Assembly: GCA_965116905.1 (NCBI GenBank)
Contig: OZ220732.1
Span: forward strand, 2,688,001 to 2,752,000
Origin: Longimicrobiales bacterium
Lineage (GTDB): Bacteria; Gemmatimonadota; Gemmatimonadetes; Longimicrobiales; Gaopeijiaceae
DNA: 64,000 nucleotides
Reading direction: 5' to 3'
Shown: piece by piece, positions 60,473 to 63,820 of the stretch
How positions within the stretch are numbered: the first letter of the stretch is position 1
Layout of the letters: each line of letters begins with the position of its first letter
The notes under the pieces: generated by a model
Told to the model about the DNA's origin: nothing
Databases searched by the model: none
What the model saw: only the letters and a program-made list of their open reading frames with translations
Position numbers and translations under genes: made by a program

Positions 60473-60805
60473 ATGGACGCGCAAATGTTCGCTGTATTCA
60501 GGACGGGCGGGAAGCAGTTTCGTGCCGAGCCGGGTGCGACCCTGCTGATCCCCACGCTGGACGCGGAGCCGGGGACCACCGTCACCTTCGAGGAGGTGCT
60601 GTTGGCGTCCGAGGGGGGCGAGGGCGGAGAGGTCTCGGTGGGGGCGCCCGTGCTGGAAGGCGCCAAGGTAACGGCAGAGGTGGTGGCGCACGACCGGACG
60701 AAGAAGATCACGGTGTTCAAGCGCAAGCGGCGCAAGGGCTACCGGCGCAAGCAGGGACACCGGCAGGGCTTCACCGTGGTACGCGTCGCCGATATCGCCG
60801 TCTAG
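60473..60805 (+). CDS. rplU: 50S ribosomal protein L21
   Basis: [10 protein letters not shown] and [17 protein letters not shown] motifs. Start at 60473 or 60485. Confidence 0.97.
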
Positions 60806-60816
60806 GAGGGATCCAA

Positions 60817-61074
60817 ATGGCTCATAAGAAAGGTGTCGGGTCGTCCCGGAACGGACGCGACAGCAACCCAAAACGTTTGGGCGTAAAGCGTTATGCAGGT
60901 GAGCGCGTGTTGGCCGGCAACATCCTGGTTCGCCAGCGCGGGACGCGTTTCCACCCGGGCAACAACGTGGGGAGAGGTCGGGACGATACCCTGTTCGCCA
61001 AGGCCGACGGTGTCGTGAAGTTCGAGAATCTCCGTCGGCGCCGGGTCGTTTCGGTCTACGACCAGGCCGGCTAG
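60817..61074 (+). CDS. rpmA: 50S ribosomal protein L27
   Basis: [16 protein letters not shown] and [10 protein letters not shown] motifs. Confidence 0.98.
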
Positions 61075-61150: not shown

Positions 61151-61192
61151 GAAAAGAAAAAGCTTGCGCTTTTCCAATTCATGTATTAAAGT
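61151..61192 (+). promoter_or_regulatory. strong sigma70-type promoter with UP-like A tract
   Basis: GAAAAGAAAAA at 61151-61161, TTGCGC 61164-61169, 17-nt spacer, TAAAGT 61187-61192. Confidence 0.75.
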
Positions 61193-61196
61193 GGTT

Positions 61197-61569
61197 TCCC
61201 CGAGGCGGAAGAGACGGACCGCAAGGAACGGAGCTGAAGCACCGGGGAGGGCCTCGAAAAGGCCGTCGCAGGGGGGAAACCCCCGGCAGATGGAACCGGG
61301 CGAGGTCCTAGGCGCCGAGAACGCCGGTGACGGGGTTCGAGGCGAGCGCGGTCTCTGGTTCGGCGGAGATTGCGACGGCTGCAGGGTCGCTGGAAGCAGC
61401 CGAAGTCCCTGGGAACGGGGGACGGCCTGGACGGCGGGAACGCCGGAAGGGTGAAGAGACGGAGAACCGGCCGTCGCACATGACGGCGCCGGAACGGAAC
61501 TCTCTGGACTCGCCAGCGAACGAAGCCCCCGAGCGGGTAGTGTGCTGCCCGCCGGGGGCTTCCTTTATT
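61197..61569 (+). ncRNA. candidate ~370-nt structured non-coding RNA of unknown family
   Basis: Lies between a promoter and a terminator; multiple GNRA-capped hairpins, a 10-bp long-range helix, duplicated motifs and 18 GGA. No credible ORF. Confidence 0.65.
61522..61569 (+). terminator. intrinsic terminator-like hairpin, possibly bidirectional
   Basis: GAAGCCCCCG-A-GCGGGTAG-TGTG-CTGCCCGC-CGGGGGCTTC followed by CTTTATT. Confidence 0.75.
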
Positions 61570-61586
61570 CGGCTGGGTCGTCCCGT

Positions 61587-61976
61587 TTATTCGCCAGGGT
61601 CGTCCGAAGCAGGGTCGTCCGAAGCAGGGTCGTCCAGGGCAGCGTCCTCCGAGGTGAACTGCCGGGTTCGCGCCGATGCGATGACCTTCCAGATCAGATC
61701 GCGCACCAGTTCCTCGTCCAGGCCCGAGTCACGCGCCAGAACGGCGGCCCTCCTCACCACCGCCGCCTCTCGTTGCGGATCGGTGACGGGTAGCCCCAGG
61801 CGCTTCTTGAACTCTCCGATCCGGATCACGAGATCACGGCGCCGGGCCAGGATCTCGACCAGCCGTTGATCACATTCGAGTACGGCATCGCGCAACCGCG
61901 CCATGTCGTCGCTCCAGGCCCGGGCACGCTCACCGCGGGCAGCGCCCTGCTCCGAACGGGCGTCTTCGCTAGGCAT
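61587..61976 (-). CDS. chorismate mutase (AroQ type)
   Basis: LRDAVLECDQRLVEILARR..V.RIGEFK and PVTDPQRE motifs; 15-bp repeats at 61595-61654 encode a DDPAS tail. Confidence 0.88.
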   Translation of the reverse strand: MPSEDARSEQGAARGERARAWSDDMARLRDAVLECDQRLVEILARRRDLVIRIGEFKKRLGLPVTDPQREAAVVRRAAVLARDSGLDEELVRDLIWKVIASARTRQFTSEDAALDDPASDDPASDDPGE

Positions 61977-63661: not shown

Positions 63662-63765
63662 GATGCGGTCGTGCTCGCAAAGCGATGCGATCGGGCTCGC
63701 GAAGCGATGCGGTCGGGCTCGCGAGCTGATGTGGTCGGGCTCGAGCCGGTGCGGTCGGGCTCGCG
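63662..63765. repeat. ~5 x 22-bp degenerate intergenic tandem repeat (GATGCGGTCGGGCTCGC...)
   Basis: Units start at 63662, 63684, 63706, 63728 and 63748; no unique spacers. Confidence 0.85.
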
Positions 63766-63820
63766 TGCCCAGCCACCGATTCTATCGCGGCGGTGACGCC
63801 GGGGCGAGGGGCCACGCGGT

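Follow-up and report, generated by a model that had tools for sequence, protein, structure and literature searches.

Few bacterial RNAs are both large and intricately folded, and those that are understood, namely RNase P RNA, tmRNA, and the group I and group II introns, do fundamental chemistry. GOLLD and OLE RNAs have 600 nt or more, and Ms1 RNA about 300 nt. Bacterial Y RNAs occur in hosts with a Ro60 gene, usually adjacent to their own.

The raiA motif RNA is described, in those parts of PMC12968392 drawn on here, as an abundant orphan of about 250 nt and unknown function, with two pseudoknots around a compact core and variable peripheral stems; the protein KhpB has been reported to be enriched with it. 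In ROOL (659 nt) and GOLLD, some of the covarying kissing loops are intermolecular bridges of RNA-only cages, according to the corresponding parts of PMC12286853.

The locus and its boundaries

The window (the whole stretch of DNA analysed, 64,000 nt) contains a gene for a noncoding RNA at 61198-61569 on the + strand, flanked by rplU-rpmA and a convergent chorismate-mutase-like gene, and single-copy in the source genome (97% complete). The features around it are:

60485-61074, + strand: rplU (L21) and rpmA (L27), the upstream neighbours, outside the RNA and a landmark at genus level
61152-61192, + strand: predicted sigma70-type promoter, with an A-tract (61152-61161), a -35 element TTGCGC (61164-61169), a 17-nt spacer, and a -10 element TAAAGT (61187-61192)
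61587-61976, - strand: chorismate-mutase-like gene, convergent, with all family matches below curated cut-offs

The promoter had been seen in the initial annotation, and would start transcription at about 61198-61199. All 32 aligned copies from the genus keep its TTG and TAnnnT, 17 nt apart; in the wider family 58 of 72 members are preceded by the pattern, while the control, the opposite strand, has it in 5 of 72. At the other end, what had been called an 18-bp terminator hairpin was found as 10 + 8 bp with one bulge, followed by a U-rich tail. A simple consensus scan of the window listed neither this promoter nor the terminator. Across the family, members bring with them promoter-like and terminator-like signals of their own. 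Reckoned from the promoter, the RNA is about 365 nt long here, 351-363 nt in the genus and two related loci, and about 266-314 nt in other family members.

The absence of a credible ORF was also borne out: none is conserved across 26 homologs, where 109 one-base and 20 two-base indels relative to the window copy, and the missing codon periodicity, exclude a conserved peptide. Since the mutase-like gene is convergent, there is no gene downstream on the RNA's own strand. The 3′ end of that gene has a tandem repeat with a unit of ~15 nt (61598-61650), to which run X1 adds one unit. Elsewhere in the window are imperfect ~24-nt tandem repeats (63680-63770), upstream of sodium/solute symporter genes, and a tRNA-Sec gene (507-603), the host being a likely selenocysteine user; outside it, 17 tRNA genes are arrayed in about 2 kb (G000:C1:1296478-1298432).

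A search of the locus against Rfam 15 at E <= 10 gave two chance matches, neither on the RNA, and for 17 loci, including distant members, no family came near its gathering score on the RNA (best ribozyme: Twister-sister, E 0.52); a scan of the whole window likewise yielded no family relevant to the RNA. The view that this is not RNase P RNA or tmRNA holds: both are encoded elsewhere in the source genome, as is a probable SRP RNA (E 1.3e-5, below cut-off). No published description of the family was found in listings of openly accessible literature and the openings of abstracts; the main text of PMC11109978 does not contain "Gemmat." With no match to a known family and a conserved, covarying fold (below), sequence comparison supports a stand-alone gene for a structured noncoding RNA of a new class, as had been proposed for the interval downstream of rplU-rpmA.

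Expression is weakly hinted at. Contigs wholly within the RNA come from three runs of three studies (61209-61514, 61269-61511, and 61294-61462, with 5-6 differences each); they were assembled from relatives with 95-99% likeness, two of the three runs are RNA by guess only, and the contigs reveal neither strand, ends, nor level. In two of the studies the contig stops just short of the last hairpin, at 61514 and 61511 and without overhang, which hints no more than weakly at a discrete transcript; run X1 has a contig that covers the region from end to end. Runs X2, X4, and X5 have no cover on rplU/rpmA, and X2-X5 no contig of the organism itself at the RNase P locus; missing cover here proves nothing.

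Fold and long-range pairings

The region 61190-61570 has a predicted folding energy of -209.8 kcal/mol (z -6.7), matched by none of 100 dinucleotide shuffles. The initial annotation had proposed gathering homologues and looking for covariation, and these do have a conserved structure with compensatory changes. Nine helices are backed by comparison: in 27 MAFFT-aligned copies from the genus, 94.2% of cells are paired, versus 38-47% in slid controls. In 77 model-aligned members the figure is 90.5%, with two-sided changes in 57 of 60 pairs; nested helices in this alignment were fitted by the model and hence lean towards it, while the pseudoknot (PK) columns were not so fitted. The elements of the fold are:

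61197-61248, + strand: P1, a long, purine-rich, irregular hairpin with a GNRA cap (GCAA); two-sided changes at 6 of the 7 pairs tested
61249-61308, + strand: P2, a long irregular hairpin with a GNRA cap (GAAA), belonging to the enlarged 5′ domain of the genus
61313-61344, + strand: P3, a hairpin with a GNRA cap (GUGA)
61347-61374, + strand: P4, with a T-loop-like pentaloop, UUCGG, at 61359-61363
61376-61402, + strand: P5, its loop holding a near-invariant GGU (61385-61387) and the 5′ strand of PK1 (61387-61393)
61405-61423, + strand: P6, a variable hairpin
61426-61451, + strand: P7, with a GNRA cap in this copy; the loop forms PK3 with that of P1 in distant members
61456-61511, + strand: P8, a long hairpin with a conserved internal-loop motif (A61492, A61493); its apical loop GCACAU (61476-61481) is the 5′ strand of PK2
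61513-61519, + strand: 3′ strand of PK1, CCAGCGA, its pairing conserved across 77 sequences
61522-61569, + strand: P9, a terminator-like hairpin (61522-61562) with a U-rich tail; its loop UGUGC (61541-61545) supplies the 3′ strand for PK2

The fixed core consists of the P4 pentaloop (UUCGG or UUCGA in 59 of 77 members, and presumably a T-loop), the P5 loop with its GGU (conserved in 76-77 of 77), PK1, and the two P8 adenosines. Of some 217 core positions, 30 reach a conservation of 90% or more, and these cluster around PK1. An RNAalifold nested fold from the untrimmed alignment was partly wrong, pairing the PK1 strands into P4.

The motifs quoted in the initial annotation are all in place, though some are strain-specific or due to chance. 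Its repeated motifs, each found twice in the window copy, are doubled in no more than 2, 5, and 5 of 27 homologs; the two sequences of its 10-bp helix (61261/61371) are present, but pair in just 68% of cells, a value as high in 196 of 500 shuffles. It had missed the long-range pairings, and the part of the terminator loop in the fold.

Three such pairings have compensatory changes: PK1 (a nearly invariant pseudoknot), PK2 (a kiss between the P8 and terminator loops), and PK3 (a kiss between the P1 and P7 loops). PK1 joins the P5 loop to the CCAGCG preceding the last hairpin; over 77 sequences 97.8% of its cells are paired and 4 of its 6 pairs change on both sides, examples being CACUGG/CCAGUG in locus L349 and CGCCGG/CCGGCG in L315. 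PK2 is GCACA/UGUGC here, and elsewhere ACACAC/GUGUGU, GUGUGU/ACACGC, or AAACGC/GCGUUU. PK3, between the P7 loop and that of the first hairpin, is found outside the window's genus in several distinct sequence classes; in the rows tested (genus-type rows and rows without a promoter match being left out), 50 of 52 have at least five Watson-Crick pairs in a run, at +10 to +18 in 43 of 52, and pairing is 92% with a row's own partner versus 27.5% across classes. When loops were set against their own partners and those of other members, none of 5000 permutations did as well, for PK1, PK2, or PK3; these tests ignore relatedness, and that for PK2 used 81 rows (12 long-loop rows dropped) of 52 distinct types. 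Several members (L319, L321, and L213) pair poorly at PK2. A chance origin of the pairings is unlikely because of the number of distinct compensatory classes.

PK2 is not universal: in one subtype (L338-L351) it is replaced by UUCG-like loops, PK1 and PK3 being retained. In the window's genus PK3 is gone, and the 5′ domain measures about 150 nt, versus 55-100 nt elsewhere; a GNRA cap is shared by P1, P2, and P3 in 25 of 27 genus copies, and P7 has one as well in most. The loops are not conserved palindromes. Some members (L163, L199, L210, L281, L117, L314, and L316) have insertions of 20-80 nt in P7 or P8; in those of the L163 type, PK2 has apparently shifted to the inserted hairpin.

Distribution, synteny, and loss

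By BLAST, the RNA is present in 30 of 36 genomes of the genus. It lies beside rpmA at 27 of 29 fetched genus loci, the other two being cut by contig ends, and near homologs in public records are all assigned to Gemmatimonadota, Gemmatimonadetes, or Longimicrobiales. A covariance model of the 216-nt core finds matches in at least four families of the class in other genera; outside the genus, the neighbours differ. Across a sample of the phylum, 22 of 151 genomes were positive with this model, counting the source genome and one weak match: 9 of 16 in family f1, 1 of 1 in f3, 9 of 31 in f5, 2 of 74 in f4, and none of 28 in other families. A more sensitive run over 40 genomes, most of them negatives, brought in five further genomes of f3 with strong matches and one of f2; this tally leaves out the unpublished G056 and the weak G052, whose match (E 0.002) looks coding. 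G123 has a weak match (E 0.006). Among metagenome loci, 55 of 98 tested match at E <= 2e-8. As 15-150 candidates were scored per genome, with the 216-nt-core model alone, this distribution is a lower bound, and negatives stand for "not found" rather than "absent."

A motif scan of 13 of the 64 parts of GTDB gave 120 loci, of which 14 are true members, all Gemmatimonadota. Beyond the phylum, 85 genomes yielded no credible member (40 from around a Fibrobacteres record, another 40 from around an Acidobacteriota one, and 5 taken singly); of four weak matches in other phyla, two look coding, and two are short and partial. Viral contigs gave two motif matches, both by chance, and phage and plasmid collections none. 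The flanks of 28 distant loci vary and are often convergent, with one recurring site, between lipB and convergent rnhA/carA (7 loci in two families); there was no reverse transcriptase (RT), nuclease, or transposase among their 142 flanking frames (about 1-1.5 kb per side). G010 and G035 carry duplications of the whole unit, promoter included; in G060 there are five copies.

Nine genomes of the genus, of 2.1-4.1 Mb, are without the RNA. Five non-carrier genomes have a clean deletion, with the gap from rpmA to the mutase gene down to 87-213 nt. An L21-L27 tree of 33 loci needs three to four changes, its starred branches forcing only one. On this comparison, the RNA has been deleted three to four times within the genus, and hence is taken to be dispensable. 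In two non-carriers, G240 and G019 (L359 and L362), repeated palindromic elements lie downstream of rpmA, replacing both the RNA and the mutase gene.

Possible roles and likeness to known RNAs

The reading we tentatively favour, at a probability somewhat short of even, would have the RNA fold into a compact, stable particle and work in trans and in large amounts, providing a structural scaffold or a binding sink, a role also proposed for raiA, ROOL, and OLE RNAs. Transcription would run from about 61198 through to the U-tail; the fold would be built around a core of the P4 T-loop, P5, and PK1, and the terminator loop would dock onto P8, sealing the 3′ end. Here the GNRA-capped arms would stand in for the P1-P7 kiss, as tertiary or intermolecular contacts. 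The RNA would be highly abundant, and its role dependent on dosage, not essential, and probably, by analogy, tied to stress or slow growth. Action in trans is suggested because the flanks of the 28 distant loci vary, often converge, and lack RT, nuclease, or transposase; dependence on dosage, because duplicated units keep their promoter and one genome has five copies; and a non-essential role, because of the clean deletion and the three to four changes on the tree. The near-invariant unpaired residues would fit an active site or a ligand site equally well.

An active site would imply a new large ribozyme, in which the GGU, PK1, the T-loop, and the P8 adenosines act on RNA or a small substrate. 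The clustering of conserved positions at PK1 speaks for it, as do a size and tertiary complexity like those of known large ribozymes; it is nonetheless unlikely, there being no intron-like insertion, no conserved substrate gene near 28 loci, and no ribozyme family matched at significance, while the duplications fit a stoichiometric role better. T-loops stack on the tRNA elbow in RNase P and T-box RNAs, and the same could be imagined here for a tRNA- or ribosome-binding RNA, with the GGU pairing to the RCCA end: the T-loop-like loop lies directly beside that well-kept GGU. We think this improbable too, in that no other conserved T-loop turned up, PK1 can be lengthened by the U of the GGU, and the genome already has an ordinary RNase P RNA and tmRNA. 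To a bolder version, in which a new large-ribozyme class or tRNA-gripping RNA machine would have the T-loop, GGU, and PK1 as its working site and would build an RNA-only multimer by kissing loops or GNRA arms, we likewise give little credence. Binding to RNA polymerase, in the manner of Ms1 or 6S RNA, was among the roles initially suggested, and the size close to that of Ms1, the strong-looking promoter, the stand-alone gene, and the lack of a significant Rfam 6S match in the source genome would suit it. One argument against it is a separate 6S-like gene outside the window (G000:C1:4142677-4142834, - strand; locus L355), with promoter- and terminator-like flanks, found with nhmmer (E 4e-10) by a profile made from G322, G185, and G050 only; these three genomes carry both the present RNA family and a 6S-like gene. 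To judge by sequence, the gene in the source genome is a probable divergent Gemmatimonadota 6S RNA. It is below the Rfam 6S cut-off in all genomes tested; weak Rfam 6S matches in relatives (L330, L331, and L354) align as a long-hairpin family. A weak 6S match at G000:2324186 lies inside an ORF, the zapA-rny interval has no 6S, and no paper on Gemmatimonad 6S RNA was found. A second argument is the fold itself, which is multi-hairpin and pseudoknotted rather than a bubble-bearing long hairpin, with no 6S or Ms1 match at the locus. A polymerase-binding role is thus quite doubtful.

An RNA that serves a mobile element as guide, template, or end (an orphan omega-RNA or RT-associated RNA) might explain the patchy distribution, the up to five copies, and the several chromosomal sites, but we hold it to be very unlikely: synteny with rpmA is stable within the genus, the lipB to rnhA/carA site recurs in two families, there is no variable single-stranded guide end, phages, plasmids, and viral contigs gave no match, and no IscB, TnpB, or RT gene was found within about 1-1.5 kb on each side of 28 loci. 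The part of the terminator loop in a tertiary pairing brings to mind a riboswitch-like or other cis-regulatory leader, with PK2 competing with the terminator; a T-loop and kissing hairpin occur in the FMN and cobalamin aptamers, of which the present combination is reminiscent. However, what lies downstream varies from member to member and in many, as here, is a convergent gene, PK2 uses the loop of the terminator and not its stem, and no riboswitch family matched, making such a role highly improbable. Finally, a CsrA sponge like CsrB or RsmZ, also initially proposed, shares with this RNA a similar length, many GGA, purine richness, and a terminator. The count behind it is correct (18 GGA, six of them ANGGA, and two TCC in 61198-61521), but is not above chance by dinucleotide shuffles (P 0.27, and 0.12 for ANGGA; by mononucleotide shuffles P is 0.03 and 0.04). 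Just 2 of the 18 GGA are kept in at least 26 of 27 homologs, neither in an ANGGA hairpin loop, the loops being GNRA instead, and the core is a conserved tertiary one. A search for csrA, recommended at the outset, found it in neither the source genome nor 33 of 40 carriers (7 of 40 have it), and in none of 13 genus genomes tested; together these leave the sponge a next to negligible probability.

We return to the favoured reading, an abundant scaffold or sink acting in trans. The RNA class and its fold are new; its way of working may yet prove to be a familiar one. The class has a well-supported fold and comes from a common but little-studied phylum, and its natural variants exchange one tertiary contact for another (PK3 for GNRA arms, PK2 for UUCG caps), making it a target for cryo-EM in asking what orphan RNAs do. 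The repeated losses within one genus offer a route to a partner via phylogenetic profiling. Ro60 (TROVE) was found in none of 53 genus genomes, which argues against a bacterial Y RNA; KhpB (as a Jag_N match) was likewise found in none of the 53, a point against the favoured reading.

With 6S and Ms1 RNA, the present RNA shares a stand-alone gene for a stable RNA behind a housekeeping-type promoter, but it is not the long hairpin with central bubble of 6S. With ROOL, GOLLD, and OLE, it shares covarying kissing loops. Covariation gives the same signal for intra- and intermolecular pairing, and PK2 and PK3 may also be intermolecular. Its length is about half that of ROOL, it lies on the chromosome, and neither phage and plasmid collections nor Rfam gave a match. 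Like raiA, it is an orphan bacterial RNA with pseudoknots around a compact core and with peripheral stems that vary. In raiA, P1 joins the 5′ and 3′ ends and both pseudoknots lie on one linker (PMC12968392, in the parts drawn on here), whereas in the present RNA hairpins follow one another in a chain as far as the terminator, long-range pairings number as many as three, and the host belongs to another phylum.
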